This document shows, one piece after another, positions 26,980-34,631 of a DNA stretch of 64,000 nucleotides; the first letter of the stretch is position 1, and the number at the start of each line of letters is the position of its first letter. The translations under genes and the position numbers were made by a program. Source of the DNA: an uncultured delta proteobacterium (GTDB taxonomy: Bacteria > Myxococcota_A > Polyangia > Haliangiales > Haliangiaceae); contig CAWKDB010000004.1 in assembly GCA_963848295.1 (NCBI GenBank), positions 160,001 through 224,000 of the forward strand. Direction: 5' to 3'. The notes beneath the pieces are model-generated. The model did not search any database. It saw only the letters and a list, made by a program, of their open reading frames with translations, and had not been told where the DNA came from.

Positions 26980-27999
26980 TCAACCCGCCGCCGCGCGCTC
27001 GATCTCGCCGATGATCATCATCCGCTCTGCCTCGGGCAAGAACGCTGCATGCGCCGCGTTCTCGCACAGCTTGACGATCTCGTGGGCGGTCAGCTTGAGC
27101 GCCTCCGCGGTCTGCCGGAAGTTCTCCGCGATGTAGCCGCCGAAGTACGCCGGGTCGTCGCTGTTGATCGTGACGTGCACGCCCTTGCGGAGCAGGCGCG
27201 CGAGGTTGTGCTCGGTGAGGCTCTTGATGACGCGCAGCTTGAGGTTCGACAGCGGGCAGACGGTGAGCGCGATCCGCTTGCGTGCGAGCTCGTCGACCAG
27301 CGACGGATCCTCTTCGCACCGAACGCCGTGGTCGATGCGCTCGACGTGGAGCTGATCGATCGCTTCGCGGATGTACGACGCCGGGCCTTCTTCGCCCGCG
27401 TGCGCGACGAGGTGGAGGCCGTGCTCGCGCGCCTTCGCGAACACGCGCGCGAACTGGCTCGGCGGATGGCCGCGCTCGCCGGAGTCGAGGCCGACGCCGA
27501 TGAATTCGCTGCGATACGGCAGCGCGGCCTCGAGCGTATCGAACGCGTCTTGCTCGGACAGGTGGCGCAGGAAGCACAGGATCAGATTCGACGTGATGCC
27601 GTACTGCTTGTGGGCGTCGTGCATCGCATCGCGCAGTCCGCCGATCACGACCTCGAGCGAGATGTTGCGCGCGGTGTGCGTCTGCGGGTCGAAGAACAGC
27701 TCCGCGTGCACGACGCCGTCGGCGTGCGCGTGTTTGAAGTACGCCGCCGCGAGCGCCTTGAAGTCGCTGCGATCGCGCAACACGTCGCAGCCGGCGTAGT
27801 ACAGGTCCAAGAACGATTGCAGATCCGCGAAGTCATACGCGGCGCGGACCGCCGCGACCGATTCATACGGCAGCTTCGCTCCGTGCTTGGCCGCGAGCTC
27901 GAACATCAGCTCGGGCTCGAGCGTGCCTTCGATGTGGAGATGGAGCTCGACCTTCGGCAGACGGCGGATCAAGGCTTCGCGGGCGGGGTCGAGCGGCAT
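26980..27999 (-). CDS. Adenosine-deaminase-fold enzyme, probably adenine deaminase
   Basis: LPKVELHLHIEGTLEPE, LQSFLDLYY, HAGEEG, RIDHG, NSDDPAYFGG. Confidence 0.92.
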   Translation of the reverse strand: MPLDPAREALIRRLPKVELHLHIEGTLEPELMFELAAKHGAKLPYESVAAVRAAYDFADLQSFLDLYYAGCDVLRDRSDFKALAAAYFKHAHADGVVHAELFFDPQTHTARNISLEVVIGGLRDAMHDAHKQYGITSNLILCFLRHLSEQDAFDTLEAALPYRSEFIGVGLDSGERGHPPSQFARVFAKAREHGLHLVAHAGEEGPASYIREAIDQLHVERIDHGVRCEEDPSLVDELARKRIALTVCPLSNLKLRVIKSLTEHNLARLLRKGVHVTINSDDPAYFGGYIAENFRQTAEALKLTAHEIVKLCENAAHAAFLPEAERMMIIGEIERAAAG

Positions 28000-28085: not shown

Positions 28086-30707
28086 ATGGGGGTTGGGGAG
28101 AAGATTGGCGCTGGCGCTGGACCATCCGGCGCGGAGCGGTCAGGTCATCCGGAGGGCGCCGCATCCGACGGCACCACCGTAGCAGCGGTGAGCGCGTTGC
28201 TCGCACGCAACGGCTCGCCGATGGAGGTCGCCGACATTCTGTCGAGCCATCCGCAGGATCAAAGCGCGGTGATGCTGCTGCTCCACACCACGCGCGGGAA
28301 CAGCTACGTCCAGCAGGTCACGACCGCGATGGGGAGCTCGAAGCGCACCTCGTCCGCTCATGATCCGATCGACGGGAGCCCAGCCGCGCAGCTCGCGCTC
28401 GATCGTCCGCCGCGATCGCCGAACGAACGGAAGCACGAGCACGTCGCTCTCGCCGAGCATTCGATCGAGGCGCTGCGACGATCAGTCACCGGTACGCTCG
28501 GCACGCTGATCCCGGGGTACGTCGCGGCACGCAACAACCTCGATACCGCGTCGGTCGCCGAGCTTGGAGGCCGACTGCTCGGCGCCTTCAATGTCATGCA
28601 CGGCGCCAAGTGCGCGTTCGACAAGCTCGCGCCCGCGCAACAGAGTGTCCCCGGTGGAACTGCGGAGAGCGATCTCGCAGCCGCAGGGCGTGAAACGTCG
28701 TTGCACGCGAACGCCGATGCGATCGCGAACCTGATCGGTCCGACGGACATCGCGATCGCCAGGACGCTCACTCCGCACGTGTTTCGCGGCACTGAAGTCG
28801 CGGGCCACGAGGTCAGCGTTCAGCTCGTAGGCGACATGGGCACCGACACCGCGAAGCTCGCGGGCGAGCTCGAGCGCACGATCGACATGCTGTCACTCGT
28901 CGAGGAGCTGAGCGCGTCGCTGAAAGGCAAAGGTGGTCTCGAGCGTTCGAAGCTGGATGCCGGGCGCTACAAGATCGCCGCGTGGGCCGGGCGCCCGCTC
29001 GATATCGCGTTTCTTCGGGCCGCGCTCGGTCGCGTGTGGGACGTCTACGACGCAACGGCGGAGGGGCCGATGTTGGAGAAACCCAGCGATGCGCTCGAGG
29101 AGGCGACCAAGCACGCCGCGCATACCGGATGGCTCGCCGACACGGGGCGGTTCGACCTCAATACGGCGTGCACGATGATCGAGGGCGGCATGGCCGAGGC
29201 CGCGCTCGGCGATCTCTACACCGCAGATCCGGACACGCGCGCGAGACTGCTGATCGAGATCCAGCAGCGCGGGCTGTTCGACAAGTTCTGCGACGCGTTC
29301 GGATGGCAAGAGCTCAAGCAGCTGCACGACAGCCTCGGCTACGGCTTCTCCGACCTCCGGCACGCGCTCCAGGCGAAGTTCACAGGCAAGGGCAAGTTCG
29401 GACCGACGTACGACAGCGAGTGGGAGAACCATGACAGCTCGCTGCACCATCTCGTCGGGAGCGTTCCCGGTGTCGGCGGTGCCCTGAACTTCGCGCTCGA
29501 TGTCGGCACGTTCGGGTTCAACTCGAGCTACGGCAAGGCGCTCGATGACGAGTCGGAAGGGCTCATCTCGTCCGACGAAGCGCGTGCCGAGCGCCACAAT
29601 GCGTGGGCGCGGATGGCTGCCGTCGCCATGGTCTCGACGATCACCGGTGGCGTCGCCGACAAGTTCGTCCGCGGCGGAGCCGCGACGGTCTCGACCGCTC
29701 GGGCGATCGCCGGCGGCGCGGCCGCGGGCGGCTTCGTCGGGACGAGCGCACTGCTTGCGTCGGACACTTACAACGTCTACGGGGCCGGCACGCAAAGCTC
29801 GCTGTCATCGCCATCGGCCTACGTCGAGACCGCGCTGATCGGCGGCTTGGTCGGCGGCGCGATCGGTGGGGTGACGAGCGGCTTGAGTCGCCGAGCCGCC
29901 GAATACACCTCCAACTCCGAGGTCGGCGCTCGGCCGGACGTCGCAACGGCAGCGCCATCGGTCGGAGCCGAACCGGTTGTGGTTGAACCACGGATCTCGG
30001 CCGCCGCGCGAGCCTCGGGCCTCGACCTCGGTGCCCTCACGCCCGTTCAGCGCACGCTGCTCGAGGCCGCGGACGGAGCGCTCGAGCGCGGCAACATCTC
30101 CGAGAGCGCGAAGCTGTTCGACGAGCTAGCGAACGGGGGTGTTCCGAAGGAGACCGTTGCCACGCTAGAGAACGAACTTGCGCGAACGCTAGGCAAGACG
30201 CCGCCGAGCGTGTACCGGGATCCCAAAGCAACGCTCCCGAACGGCGCGGAGGTTCCGCCGTCGGTTTGGGGCGGCGTCAAATACTACGGGACCAGCGAGA
30301 TTCCTCCAGAGATCGCCTTTGCCGACGGATTTCCGGGGCGAGGCAGCGACACCGATCTCTTGCAGCATTCCCAAGGAGCTCTAGACCGGGCATTCCGCGG
30401 CACCACCGAATACCTTGTCAGTCCCGATGGACAAGCTGGCGCGGGCGCGTGGGCGGAGGAGGGCGGCTGGGTCTACAAGATCGACGGAACGCCGAGCTGG
30501 GACCTGAACGCAGAGCTCGAAGGCCGCGTGCCACAGTCTGACGGGAGCTTTGGCGGGAATCGAATGCACGGCGAACACGAGCATTCAGTTCTTGCGAACA
30601 TCCCGAAGGAACGCATCATCGGAGCGTTCAAGATGACTGTCGATGCGAATGGGACCCTCAGACCCGGCCCGATGATTTCGAATCCGAACTACGTACCGAT
30701 AACGTAA
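28086..30707 (+). CDS. Polymorphic-toxin-like protein with C-terminal ADP-ribosyltransferase-like domain
   Basis: Gly-zipper hydrophobic segments (about 29600-29890); C-terminal YYGTS.IPPEIAFADGF...DLLQH...FRGTT...GWVYKID...DLN...GEHEHSV...IPKERIIGA matches the layout of scabin/pierisin/enterotoxin-A-type ARTs. Confidence 0.7.
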   Translation: MGVGEKIGAGAGPSGAERSGHPEGAASDGTTVAAVSALLARNGSPMEVADILSSHPQDQSAVMLLLHTTRGNSYVQQVTTAMGSSKRTSSAHDPIDGSPAAQLALDRPPRSPNERKHEHVALAEHSIEALRRSVTGTLGTLIPGYVAARNNLDTASVAELGGRLLGAFNVMHGAKCAFDKLAPAQQSVPGGTAESDLAAAGRETSLHANADAIANLIGPTDIAIARTLTPHVFRGTEVAGHEVSVQLVGDMGTDTAKLAGELERTIDMLSLVEELSASLKGKGGLERSKLDAGRYKIAAWAGRPLDIAFLRAALGRVWDVYDATAEGPMLEKPSDALEEATKHAAHTGWLADTGRFDLNTACTMIEGGMAEAALGDLYTADPDTRARLLIEIQQRGLFDKFCDAFGWQELKQLHDSLGYGFSDLRHALQAKFTGKGKFGPTYDSEWENHDSSLHHLVGSVPGVGGALNFALDVGTFGFNSSYGKALDDESEGLISSDEARAERHNAWARMAAVAMVSTITGGVADKFVRGGAATVSTARAIAGGAAAGGFVGTSALLASDTYNVYGAGTQSSLSSPSAYVETALIGGLVGGAIGGVTSGLSRRAAEYTSNSEVGARPDVATAAPSVGAEPVVVEPRISAAARASGLDLGALTPVQRTLLEAADGALERGNISESAKLFDELANGGVPKETVATLENELARTLGKTPPSVYRDPKATLPNGAEVPPSVWGGVKYYGTSEIPPEIAFADGFPGRGSDTDLLQHSQGALDRAFRGTTEYLVSPDGQAGAGAWAEEGGWVYKIDGTPSWDLNAELEGRVPQSDGSFGGNRMHGEHEHSVLANIPKERIIGAFKMTVDANGTLRPGPMISNPNYVPIT

Positions 30708-30709
30708 CC

Positions 30710-31348
30710 ATGGCATCCGCCGACGACCTACTCGCTGAGGCTGCCGAGATCAATGCGAGCGATCCTGATCGAGCGCTAGCGCTTCGCCGTCAAGTCGCGG
30801 CTGGGAATCCCAGTATCGCCTGGTCGAAAGCGCACATGGATCTTGCGTCGAAAGACTTCGACAACGGTGATTATGCCGGTGTGATCGCGCACGCGAAAGC
30901 GGTCCTTAGTGCTCCTGCTTCGGCCGTAGATCCGGGCGCGCAGGCCGTTGCTGGGGTGATGTTGTGTGGCGAGCTTTCGAGCGGAGGCCAGGCGGTCGAC
31001 GAGGCGCTACTCGCAGCAAGCACGACAGCTGCTGAAGCTAACAATCTTCCTTATTACGCGGGGCTTGGATTCAATCACATCGCGCGACTCCATCTCGCCC
31101 GTGGCGAACGCGACGACGCGCGTTCTGCGTTGGAACGCGCTGCCGATTTGTTCGAACGCGCGCGATCGCTGAGTGCGGCAAGTGTGTTGTTGCGGCTCGC
31201 GGAGCTCGATCTCGAGGACAGCAACCGGGAAGACGCGCGCAGCCACCTCGACCGTGGTCTCGCATGGCTGTCGTCGTTTCCGGTTAGCGGCAAGAGCCTC
31301 CGGTTACTGCGCGACAAACTTCAGAAGCTGAGCGCACAGGTTCCGTAG
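30710..31348 (+). CDS. Helical-repeat (TPR-like) protein, putative immunity protein
   Basis: Starts 2 nt after the toxin stop; no signal peptide; visibly more A/T-ending codons than flanking genes; TPR-like helices (ARSALERAADLF, ARSHLDRGL). Confidence 0.6.
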   Translation: MASADDLLAEAAEINASDPDRALALRRQVAAGNPSIAWSKAHMDLASKDFDNGDYAGVIAHAKAVLSAPASAVDPGAQAVAGVMLCGELSSGGQAVDEALLAASTTAAEANNLPYYAGLGFNHIARLHLARGERDDARSALERAADLFERARSLSAASVLLRLAELDLEDSNREDARSHLDRGLAWLSSFPVSGKSLRLLRDKLQKLSAQVP

Positions 31349-31446: not shown

Positions 31447-31694
31447 TCACCGTCCAGCGTCGCATAGCTCTGTACGCAGCTCTCCGTGCGCATCGTCGGC
31501 GTCGATCAACTCGACGCGGTTATCGGTGACGTCTTTCATGTGCCGCTCGATTTGCTTCGACCACTCGCGCTCCCATTCCGGATCGAGCGATTCATCGACG
31601 AGGCTCTCGTAGAGCTCGTTGGCCAGCTCTTGCCGCTCCTCAGGAGGAGCGTCAACTCTTCGCGCCGAAGCTCGGGCCCGATCGGCATCATCAT
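31447..31694 (-). pseudogene. Addiction-module antitoxin-like gene (TIGR02574-type), frameshifted
   Basis: ATG ATG ATG CCG... then, after a 1-nt shift near 31648, PPEERQELANELYESLVDESLDPEWEREWSKQIERHMKDVTDNRVELID...GR*; not in the ORF track. Confidence 0.65.
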
Positions 31695-31843: not shown

Positions 31844-34631
31844 ATGACCGACGCCGCTCCCGCCCCCGTCTCGTTCGATCCGGTGCCCGCGCTCGTCCGC
31901 GAGCTCGGCTTGCCCGCGCACGGCGTGGCCGCGGTGGTGGCGATGCTGGACGAGGGCAACACGGTCCCGTTCATCGCGCGCTATCGCAAGGAGCGTACCG
32001 GCGGGCTCGACGAGGTCCAGATCCGGGCGATCGAGGATCAGCGCGCGTACGTCGTGGAGCTCGAGCAGCGCCGCGCCGCGATCCTCGCGTCGGTCACCGA
32101 GCAGGGCAAGCTCACGCCCGAGCTCGAGGCGAAGTTGCGCGCGGCCGGCGCGAAGTCCGAGCTCGAGGACCTGTACGCGCCGTATCGGCCGCGGCGCAAG
32201 ACTCGCGCCTCGGTCGCGCGCGATCGCGGGCTGCGAGCCGCTCGCCGACAAGATCCTCGCGCAGGCGGGCGACGGCGATCCGGCCGCCGAGGCCGGCGCG
32301 TTCGTGGCCGAGGGCGTCGCGACCGCGGCCGACGCGCTCGCGGGTGCGCGCGACATCGTCGCCGAGACGATCGCCGACACCGCCGAGGTTCGCGCATTCG
32401 TCCGCGGCGAGCTCGCCGATCACGGCGAGCTGATCAGCGAGGTCGTGCCCGGTCAAGCGCCGACGAGCCGACGAAGTTCGAGCAGTACTATCACCACCGC
32501 GAGCCGGTGAAGCAGATCCCATCGCACCGGTTCCTCGCGATCCGCCGCGGCGAGGCGGAAGGGGTGCTGCGCGCGCACGATCGCGGTCGACACTGCGAAG
32601 GTCGAAGCGGGCATCTGGCGGCTCGCAACGCGCGGCGCGGCCAGCAGCGAATCGCCTTGGGCCGCCGAGCTCAAGCAAGCCGTCGTCGATTCGTTCAAGC
32701 GCTTGCTCGCGCCGAGCGTCGAGAACGACGTGCGCGCCGAGCTCAAGACGCGCTCGGATATCGCCGCGGTCGACATCTTCGCCGGAAATTTGAAGAACCT
32801 CATGCTCGCCGCGCCGCTCGGGCCCAAGGCCGTGCTCGGCGTCGATCCGGGCGTGCGCACCGGCTGCAAGTGCGCGGCGATCGACGCGACCGGCAAGTTC
32901 ACCGGCACGGTGACCGTGTACATCTCACAAGGTGACGCCGAGCTCGCGAAGGCGAAGGACGCGTTACTCGCGGTCGTCCGCGAGCACGCGCCGCAGGCGA
33001 TCGCGGTCGGCAACGGCACCGGCGGGCGCGAGGCGGAGAGCTTCGTCAAGAAGGCGCTCGCCGAGGCGGGCCTGCGCGAAGGGCCCGACGCGCCGTTCGT
33101 CGTCCAGGTCAACGAAGCGGGTGCGAGCGTGTACTCGGCGAGCGACCTCGCCCGCGAAGAGTTCCCCGAATTGGATCTCACGATCCGCGGCGCGATCTCG
33201 ATCGCGCGCCGGCTCCAAGATCCGCTCGCCGAGCTCGTCAAGATCGAGCCGAAATCGATCGGCGTCGGCCAGTATCAACACGACGTCCACCAACCGTTGC
33301 TCGTCAAGCGCCTCGGCGACGTCGTCGAGAGCTGCGTCAATCACGTCGGCGTCGAGCTCAACACCGCGAGCGCGATGTTACTCGGTTACGTCGCGGGCAT
33401 CGGTAAGGCGCTCGCGAAGAAGATCGTCGTCCATCGCGATACCCACGGGGCGTTCGCGACTCGCGCGCAGCTGCTCGACGTCGCCGGCCTCGGGCCGAAG
33501 GCCTTCGAGCAGGCCGCCGGGTTCTTGCGCATTCACGGCGCGCCCAATCCGCTCGACGGCTCCGCGGTCCACCCCGAGCGCTACGAGCTGGTCGAGCAGA
33601 TCGCCAAGGACGCCGGCGTCGCCGTGCCCGAGCTGATCGGCAACCACGAGCTCGTCGACAAGATCGATTTCTCGAAGTACGTCACCGCCGACATCGGCGA
33701 GCCGACGCTGCGCGACATCGCCGCGGAGCTCGGTCGCCCGGGCCGCGACCCGCGCGCCGAGTTCTCGCCGCCGAAGTTCCGCGACGACGTCACGACGATG
33801 GAGGATCTCAAGCAGGGGATGGTGCTCGAGGGTGTGGTCACGAACGTCACGGCGTTCGGCGCGTTCGTCGACATCGGGGTCCACAACGACGGCTTGGTCC
33901 ACGTCTCTCAGCTCGCCGCGCAGTTCGTCAAGGATCCGGGCGAGGTCGTCAAGGTCGGCCAGAAGTTGACCGTGCGCGTGCTCGAGATCGATCACCAACG
34001 CAAGCGCATCGCACTGTCGGCCAAGCCACCGGCCCCGAAGCGCGAGCGCGAGCCGCGCGCCGAAGGTCAGCCACACCAGGGTCCGCGCAACGAGGGTACC
34101 CAGGGTCGTCGCGGTGGCGGTGGTGGCGGTCGTGGTCCGCGGCGCGACGAGGCACACGGTCAGGATCTGCACCCGATCGGTCCGCCACGCGAGCACCCGC
34201 CGCAGCAACAACGCGCGCCGCGTCGCGACGAAGGTCCGCAGCAACCCCGCGGCCCGCGCCCGCAGCACGTCGGCAATGGCAACGGCAACGGCGGTGGTGA
34301 CGACGGCGCGGGCTTTCCCCGCGCCGGCAGTGCCGCCGAAGGACGGCGCGCGGACAACGACGGTCCGCGCCGCGACTATCGCGACCGCGGAGGCAATAAC
34401 AACGGTCCGCGCCGCGACGACAATCGCGCTCCGCAGCACGCGCGCAGCGACGGTCCGCGCAACGACGGTCCGCGCAATGACGGTCCGCCGCGCGACGACC
34501 GCGGTCCGCGGCGCGGTAGTGACGACAATCGCGCGCCGCAGCGGCCGCCCGAAGACGAGACCAAGTGGGGCGTCGCGGGCTTCAAGAACAGTCCGTTCGC
34601 GAAGCTCAAAGGCGACGGGCCCAAGCGTTGA
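31844..34631 (+). CDS. tex: Tex/YhgF RNA-binding protein with S1 domain and long low-complexity tail (3 apparent frameshifts)
   Basis: GNTVPFIARYRKE, EDLYAPY, SHRFLAIRRGE, GVDPGVRTGCK, GVGQYQHDV, S1 (NVTAFGAFVDIGV); shifts near 32233, 32455 and 32577. Confidence 0.92.

Follow-up and report, generated by a model that had tools for sequence, protein, structure and literature searches.

A polymorphic toxin gene followed by its immunity gene very probably makes up the two-gene unit that we analyzed in a window of 64,000 nucleotides (the whole stretch of DNA under study: positions 160,001 to 224,000, forward strand, of contig CAWKDB010000004.1, assembly GCA_963848295.1) from an uncultured member of the Haliangiaceae within the Myxococcota_A. 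The first open reading frame (ORF) encodes a protein of 873 aa and the second, starting 2 nt after its stop codon, a protein of 212 aa. Both had been reported in an initial annotation made from the letters alone, which proposed a toxin with an ADP-ribosyltransferase (ART) tip and a helical-repeat partner. This polymorphic toxin-immunity reading is supported by the present analysis, which also revealed two features absent from the initial annotation, a non-canonical active site in the tip and an N-terminal tag. The complete account that we predict, and rate as slightly better than even, is that of a polymorphic toxin with an ART tip of rearranged active site, a plug-like immunity protein and tag-mediated loading into an extracellular contractile injection system (eCIS). 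Coordinates of all features are compiled in Table 1.

The 873-aa protein gave no match at E<=1 in Pfam and NCBIfam, which means that it has no RHS, VgrG or PAAR features, and none in PADLOC; no trafficking domain was recognized in it by Pfam or NCBIfam, the N-terminal tag being the one candidate. Over its first 30 residues the protein is hydrophilic on average (-0.53), and no Cys precedes residue 176; by these simple criteria it lacks a lipobox and, as stated initially, a signal peptide. A homolog search with residues 1-620 as the query, in which 8000 candidates were scored, yielded 19 carrier homologs, all of which keep the carrier core (residues 291-605) at 37-59% identity. Their C-termini diverge as the toxin reading predicts: four carry the same tip, four Ntox28, one an Ntox10-like domain and nine other C-termini, while one is truncated. 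The four same-tip homologs are 55-60% identical to the present protein over the tip and 39-55% over the preceding subdomain (635-705), where the other 15 show 0-20%. The swapped cassette accordingly measures about 240 aa, consisting of the 70-aa helical subdomain and an ART domain of about 168 aa (706-873); the initial proposal of an ART-like domain of about 140 aa agrees with the predicted fold and was too short in extent. Judging from these alignments, a constant carrier with interchangeable tips, the layout that defines polymorphic toxins, is present here.

The carrier was found in 11 of 138 genomes of the family, and none of seven further, more distant carriers that were fetched has this tip. 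One homolog (P0025) combines DUF4157 with the same carrier and the same tip. In comparison with the Atlas, the sole look-alike of the carrier was PT-TG at 0.85, which we treat as a lead only. The Gly-zipper hydrophobic segments noted initially correspond to Gly-rich stretches at residues 540-601; these are weak as membrane helices, with a 19-residue hydropathy of at most 1.48. A second tag with a distant carrier copy lies elsewhere in the genome that holds the window (G000:C9:64926-67721, L018); it is split into two ORFs, the C-terminal domain is DUF2380-like (E=2.8e-5, below cut-off), and short ORFs follow. Tandem arrays of two to three paralogous small genes, the pattern of accumulated immunity genes, were observed behind carrier or tip genes at L003:10097-11729, L106, L094:125-1519 and L102.

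The GC content at third codon positions (GC3) declines along the pair, from 0.84 in carrier residues 61-605 (458/545 codons) to 0.70 in the tip (118/168 codons; Fisher p=1.3e-4 for the drop relative to the carrier) and 0.63 in the second gene (134/212 codons; p=2e-9). The best change point, nt 30126 (interval 29886-30318), agrees with the earlier remark that codon bias weakens from about 30100 onward. Six of the seven neighbor genes tested have a GC3 of 0.85-0.90, the seventh being a PIN gene at 0.74. No promoter, terminator or flanking repeat above chance was detected. Both the tip and the junction of the two genes are matched, with 0-1 differences, by short-read contigs from a single soil run that may be the source sample.

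The tip was assigned to a fold through several comparisons. It matched PltA by sequence (E=6e-5), and its profile matched pertussis S1 and TreX. A fold model built from an 85-row alignment reached a pLDDT of 95.8 (only 36.7 for the single-sequence model) and superimposed on Scabin (Z 15.0, root-mean-square deviation 2.9, 143 residues aligned), TreX (Z 14.9, 1.6, 121 residues) and PltA (Z 12.8); values for the cholera toxin (CT) clade were 10-15, against at most 5.2 for diphtheria toxin and PARPs, and Foldseek agreed with placement in the CT/pertussis toxin (PT) clade. According to this model, the tip has the split beta-sheet ART fold of CT/PT type, in line with the ART fold expected initially for the last residues. 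The Pfam family PF22596 (Scabin-like) was touched by 15 of 85 tip-family members at E<=0.01, the present copy having no Pfam match.

Relatives of the tip numbered 256 at E<=0.001 among representatives at 50% identity, the best 150 of which were considered, and conservation was counted over 153 aligned rows. The catalytic ExE is near invariant (E830 in 150/150, E832 in 149/150), as is the strand-2 motif A-F-R-G-T-T (R771 in 147/150, G772 in 149/150), and H761 (144/148) and W789 (144/152) are also conserved. Position 734 is His in 100 of 144 rows and Tyr in 37, including this copy, while Arg occurs at columns 733-735 in 2 of 140 rows. The tip is thus without the strand-1 Arg of the R-S-E clade, where it has His or Tyr, and without the Ser/Thr of the strand-2 S-T-S motif, where it has Gly preceded by the near-invariant Arg. 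The strand-2 Tyr of the H-Y-E clade is likewise replaced by Gly, yet the family shows the strand-1 H-G-[ST] of that clade (H 100/144, G 137/143, T 86/143). In the aligned structural ranges residue 734 falls on TreX R15, and also on what we take to be the catalytic arginines of LT, pertussis S1 and CARDS, if the first residues align ungapped; an ungapped sequence match moves the equivalence by one and still finds no Arg. Arg771 may stand in for the lost arginine, or it may instead be structural, since the equivalent position is usually hydrophobic. The family therefore resembles CT-clade enzymes by predicted fold and ExE, departs from R-S-E at two of three positions and carries the H-G-T strand of the other clade. 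R15 is the numbering of the TreX Arg in PMC11606950. The pattern is not among the clades (H-H-h, H-Y-[QED], R-[ST]-E and R-H-h) and families (Tox-ART-RSE, PARP, HYE1, HYD1 and HYD2) described in the accessible text of PMC13617354, PMC13285283 and PMC3482391.

We consider the tip to be probably a transferase rather than a pure NADase. A tip acting as an NAD(P) glycohydrolase, whose altered strand-1 and strand-2 residues would favor hydrolysis and which would kill by NAD depletion, could account for the absence of the canonical Arg and Ser, for Atlas look-alikes that include NarE and Tse2-type clusters, and has a precedent in Tne5 (PMC13285283); we nevertheless find it distinctly improbable, as both ExE glutamates are near invariant and the first of them is reported to be needed for transfer (PMC11606950), whereas the Glu of Tne5 is dispensable. 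With two of the three canonical triad residues missing, the tip could also be an ART relic that has lost catalysis, or a domain that binds without being an enzyme. However, among the 256 clusters at 50% identity the best 150 conserve both the replacement residues and the ExE, and the tip has retained a dedicated partner next to it; decay would not produce this pattern, and we regard this reading as extremely unlikely.

The 212-aa protein matched TPR families alone, all below the curated cut-offs (best TPR_12, E=5.9e-5), and its profile retrieved only TPR proteins from PDB. Examination for ADP-ribosyl hydrolase immunity of the Tri1/Imm-ARG type gave no ARH or macrodomain match, so that both the TPR-like nature of the partner and its non-hydrolase character stand as initially described. 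Among 14 tip loci, a partner homolog lies directly downstream in three whose tips are 52-56% identical (E 1e-22 to 1e-39 with the 212-aa protein, P0002, as the query). Of the remaining loci, nine have distant tips and no partner, one ends at the edge of its contig and one could not be resolved. A partner profile of five rows, built from these homologs and P0002, found seven matches outside G000 in the 138 family genomes. Five lie directly behind the tip (G114, G305, G286 and a tandem pair in G326), another follows a short remnant of the tip (G274), and the last is at a contig end. When the tip is taken as the starting point, the partner is directly downstream in four of the seven tip matches outside G000 in the family genomes; the other three comprise one with unrelated-scoring helical ORFs, one fragment without partner and one at a contig end. 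No partner was detected at the 12 carrier loci fetched that have another or an unseen tip, the downstream DNA being incomplete in some. The second gene, by these counts, co-varies with the tip and not with the carrier.

Regarding other ORFs near related tips, the helical ORF after the second G286 tip was considered as a member of the partner family and rejected, as no link was found (HHalign 0.4%). Many ART-family members are short stand-alone proteins that have, by eye, a Sec-type signal peptide at their start and no partner gene (P0039, P0040, P0056, P0063, P0067, P0077 and P0092 as well as those at L007-L009 and L011). Distant stand-alone members at L012-L016 have pentapeptide-repeat-like ORFs behind them (by eye; three loci near identical), possibly a second partner type.

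The predicted complex of tip and partner, one of the checks proposed in the initial annotation, scored an ipSAE of 0.72 against 0.00 for the best control, with a partner pLDDT of 92 and agreement between runs in at least 86% of contacts. Of 157 solved complexes, 116 attain this ipSAE mark, compared with only 2 of the 215 mismatches; these figures are roughly applicable here. The predicted interface takes in G772, T774, W789, E830 and E832. Since the partner profile matches only TPR proteins in PDB, the result is unlikely to reflect memory of TriX. The modeled complex supports, without demonstrating, immunity by occlusion of the active site. If the toxin were aimed at eukaryotic grazers (protists), the TPR-like protein could be a folding or loading chaperone. 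Host-directed toxins are indeed among the nearest solved folds, a phosphatase and a UCH protease are among the proteins bearing the tag described below, and many eCIS toxins have no immunity genes (PMC8213781, PMC3482391), but the partner tracks the tip rather than the carrier, is found in tandem copies and, in one genome, orphaned next to a remnant of the tip, and is modeled on the catalytic face of the tip, all of which is the pattern of immunity genes; we regard this combined reading as very improbable.

The N-terminal tag has no match in Pfam or PDB. It is carried by 10 proteins of G000, and its core motif, searched genome-wide, matches nine of these and one unrelated ORF. In the family, 54 of 138 genomes contain the tag, with 191 matches counting G000. 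It lies within the first 200 residues in all 42 ORFs examined and directly ahead of DUF4157 in 2 of 40 tagged proteins of relatives scanned. C-terminal domains of tagged proteins include WHH nuclease, Ntox28, PLD, VanY and UCH protease, as well as a phosphatase in G000. Eight other tagged proteins of this genome are encoded at G000:C4:146747-147754, C10:1988080-1991442, C10:2896932-2900726, C11:685253-688222, C10:2031189-2035973, C10:406781-407833, C10:597495-598565 and C10:1585493-1585909; one is a dual-specificity phosphatase and the rest have no Pfam family (the last one being outside the scan), and one appears by eye to have annexin-like repeats and an HExxH-like tip, followed by a small gene. 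A recurring tagged family of 510-680 aa without a Pfam match (L051, L053, L054, L056, L058, L062 and L063) has beta-rich segments and a terminal aromatic residue; by eye it resembles outer-membrane barrels, which would be odd for tube cargo.

The delivery route had been left blank in the initial annotation, and several lines now point to an eCIS. The genome contains an eCIS cluster (G000:C2:901000-934000; L108, L109) with genes for Pvc16_N, two sheaths, tubes, CIS_tube, GPD, two spike OB genes, gp25, baseplate J, AAA and DUF4157, so that both the structural cluster and an AAA ATPase are present. It is bordered by genes with FHA domains and by genes for an AAA ATPase, DUF1257, a DUF4157 protein standing alone and a pentapeptide-repeat protein. 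Scattered over the genome are six WHD (PF22977) proteins that contain Walker A motifs (WHD-AAA genes); they are candidate cargo-loading ATPases, presumably linked to eCIS loading. The genome also carries DUF4157 proteins. Among 53 long tip homologs, picked by length from the best 150 of 256, 19 have DUF4157, three RHS and one a marginal PT-TG; a G305 protein joins DUF4157, another carrier and this tip, and is accompanied by this partner. The eCIS is a known route for polymorphic toxins (PMC3482391); cargo is loaded via N-terminal sequences through an AAA+ ATPase, with DUF4157 optional, and no loading sequence is reported as conserved between systems (PMC11297309; 10.64898/2026.05.27.728243). 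A family-restricted tag fits such a loading sequence and is not thereby shown to be one. Overall, eCIS delivery of the toxin appears fairly likely. Two other routes were rejected: type VI secretion (T6SS), as the markers VipB, Hcp and ImpA_N were not found in the genome (85% complete) and the toxin has no PAAR/RHS, and lipoprotein (SitA-type) transfer, as the toxin has no lipobox.

A number of observations weigh against the complete account. The toxin has no DUF4157 and its gene is on another contig (C4 of G000) than, and far from, the eCIS cluster. The tag is on only 4 of the 19 close carrier homologs, and tag-positive genomes show no eCIS enrichment, Pvc16_N having the same frequency of 87% where the tag is present (47 of 54 genomes) and where it is not (73 of 84), in counts that take in G237 and G238, both flagged as unpublished. 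In a sample of 200 genomes from the phylum, with 30 candidates scored in each, the tag was not found at E<=1e-4, although 92 of these genomes have eCIS-type tube genes. All of these points would also fit if the same pair used lysis release, vesicles or an unrecognized contact-dependent system and the tag were a chaperone- or membrane-binding module; on the other hand, carrier, tip and tag are each fused to DUF4157 in other proteins, no signal peptide, lipobox or T6SS markers were found, and the AlgoCIS preprint reports system-specific loading sequences (10.64898/2026.05.27.728243), so we judge another route unlikely. It is also unfavorable that none of the 10 tag matches is one of the DUF4157 proteins of G000; that of the 19 DUF4157-bearing tip homologs one matches the tag profile and two a loose motif; that no Pfam family was recognized in 32 of the 40 tagged proteins, whose toxin nature is thus not evident; and that, with the genome 85% complete, the missing T6SS markers are no proof of absence. 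Pvc16_N occurs in all 11 carrier-bearing family genomes, which is uninformative because of its base rate. As for the toxin itself, the canonical Arg and Ser are lacking, the divergent-pocket ART-fold toxin Tne5 proved to be an NADase (PMC13285283), nine of the 14 tip loci hold distant tips without a partner, and several short tip-family members begin by eye with Sec-type signal peptides.

Under the complete account, the tag would be read by one of the WHD-AAA ATPases of the genome and the unfolded toxin would be threaded into the eCIS tube, as reported for AlgoCIS cargo. Once inside the injected bacterium, a rival or prey, the tip would transfer ADP-ribose to an arginine of an essential protein, arginine being the expected target because ExE marks arginine-modifying enzymes (PMC11606950). 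In place of the missing Arg and Ser, the His/Tyr-Gly strand together with the new Arg771 may bind NAD, and the 212-aa protein is predicted to plug the active site of its cognate tip. It is conceivable, although we would sooner doubt it than assume it, that the tip founds a new ART clade and that the tag is at the same time a sequence-defined eCIS loading signal. In this joint reading the triad would have been rebuilt on a CT scaffold as His/Tyr-Gly-ExE with the arginine moved to strand 2, and the tag would mark a scattered Kofleriaceae cargo set of about 190 genes in 54 genomes with mostly function-less annotation.

Table 1. Positions of the toxin-immunity pair, its parts and the candidate loading ATPase genes (window coordinates unless a contig of G000 is given)
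Feature	Coordinates	Strand	Basis
Gene for the polymorphic toxin (873 aa), comprising tag, carrier, pre-toxin helices and ART-fold tip	28086..30707	+	ORF list, homolog comparison
N-terminal tag, residues 26-89, end motif L-[HQ]-x3-G-N-x-[YF]-V; predicted loading or targeting signal	28161..28352	+	
Conserved carrier, residues 110-605 (core 291-605), no Pfam family	28413..29900	+	homolog comparison
Gly-rich, mildly hydrophobic segments, residues 540-601, at carrier end; putatively pre-toxin-like	29703..29888	+	hydropathy
Helical subdomain, residues 635-705, swapped along with the ART tip	29988..30200	+	identity in homologs
ART-fold tip, residues 706-873, predicted cholera/pertussis/Scabin/TreX fold, non-canonical site	30201..30704	+	sequence match, profile, fold model
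Key residues of the tip: Y734 (His in most relatives), H761, R771-G772-T773-T774, W789, E830-x-E832			
Predicted cognate immunity gene, 212 aa, TPR-like, without hydrolase family; predicted cover over the active-site face of the tip	30710..31348	+	
WHD-AAA genes	G000:C10:1010786, C11:157373, C10:3497406, C10:2053793, C10:113654, C10:561213		

Within the window, the PIN-domain gene of lower GC3 (PF01850, 26294-26776, minus strand) lies two genes upstream of the toxin gene, and an adenosine deaminase gene (26980-27999) is divergent from it. Just downstream, an addiction-module antitoxin-like stretch (PF09720, E=4.7e-8; 31450-31659, minus strand), whose start looks frameshifted, faces the pair. 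It is followed by a gene broken over several frames (31844-34631, plus strand), which we take to be of the Tex family; single-base differences relative to the short-read contigs at 32235 and 32576 make assembly errors likely in this gene.

Polymorphic toxins of the PVC/eCIS route, including those of Haliangium, ART tips and occluding immunity are already known (PMC3482391, PMC8213781, PMC11606950, PMC13285283). The literature searched gave no description of the present ART motif, tag or partner, with most subscription papers, the 2015 ART natural-history review and supplements outside its scope, and the family is not described in the accessible part of 10.1101/2021.10.19.465003. The claim of an undescribed family made initially consequently holds, by this literature, for the active-site pattern, the carrier, the TPR-like partner and the tag; it does not extend to binding-type ART immunity, known from TreX-TriX (PMC11606950). 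ART enzymes are sorted by their catalytic triads. The present family, which numbers at least 256 clusters, combines the H-G-T strand known from one clade with an ExE and a predicted scaffold known from the other, and so offers a test of the ways in which an NAD-binding site can be rebuilt; its target may be new. An alignable tag on many unrelated proteins would offer a handle on a conserved eCIS signal, none having been found so far according to PMC11297309 and 10.64898/2026.05.27.728243, and a means to list the cargo of abundant, mostly uncultured soil predators. The pair would also add a TPR-like fold to the ART immunity proteins, its immunity function being predicted.

With PVC/eCIS polymorphic toxins, reported to have a constant N-terminal part, a variable C-terminal toxin and several copies per genome, also in Haliangium (Zhang et al. 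2012, PMC3482391; Geller et al. 2021, PMC8213781), the present toxin shares the constant part and variable tip, and its carrier and tip are fused to DUF4157 in relatives. In contrast to them, it has a short conserved tag in place of DUF4157/PVC-metallopeptidase, is encoded away from the eCIS cluster and has a predicted cognate immunity gene, absent for many PVC toxins. The R-S-E clade domains of Scabin/pierisin, pertussis S1/PltA and LT/CT have the same fold (Z 10-15), the L..H helix and a C-terminal NPxY-type tail, whereas the present tip is without the strand-1 Arg and strand-2 Ser, has an extra near-invariant Arg and is accompanied by no detected B subunit or ricin-type domain. TreX-TriX of Xenorhabdus bovienii (PDB 8s2m) has the closest-fitting fold, ExE, a polymorphic tip and a downstream non-hydrolase immunity protein that occludes the active site, as is predicted here; TreX, however, has R15-S54-ExE on an Rhs/T6SS carrier and is about 22-24% identical to the present tip, and TriX is a mixed beta/alpha wedge where the present partner is TPR-like (PMC11606950). 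Tne5-Tni5 likewise pairs an ART-fold polymorphic tip of non-canonical pocket with an occluding immunity protein (PMC13285283). The differences, by description only, are that Tne5 is an NADase with Lys at strand 1 and a dispensable Glu, while the present family has His/Tyr at strand 1, Arg on strand 2 and an invariant ExE. The AlgoCIS cargo Cgo1/Cgo2 resembles the present toxin in its N-terminal region before an optional DUF4157, an AAA+ ATPase in the genome and a system-specific sequence (10.64898/2026.05.27.728243). Its loading sequences are reported to be disordered and to lack conservation from one system to another, in contrast to the 60-residue tag with an aligned core found here on many unrelated proteins of one family, for which a loading role is predicted.

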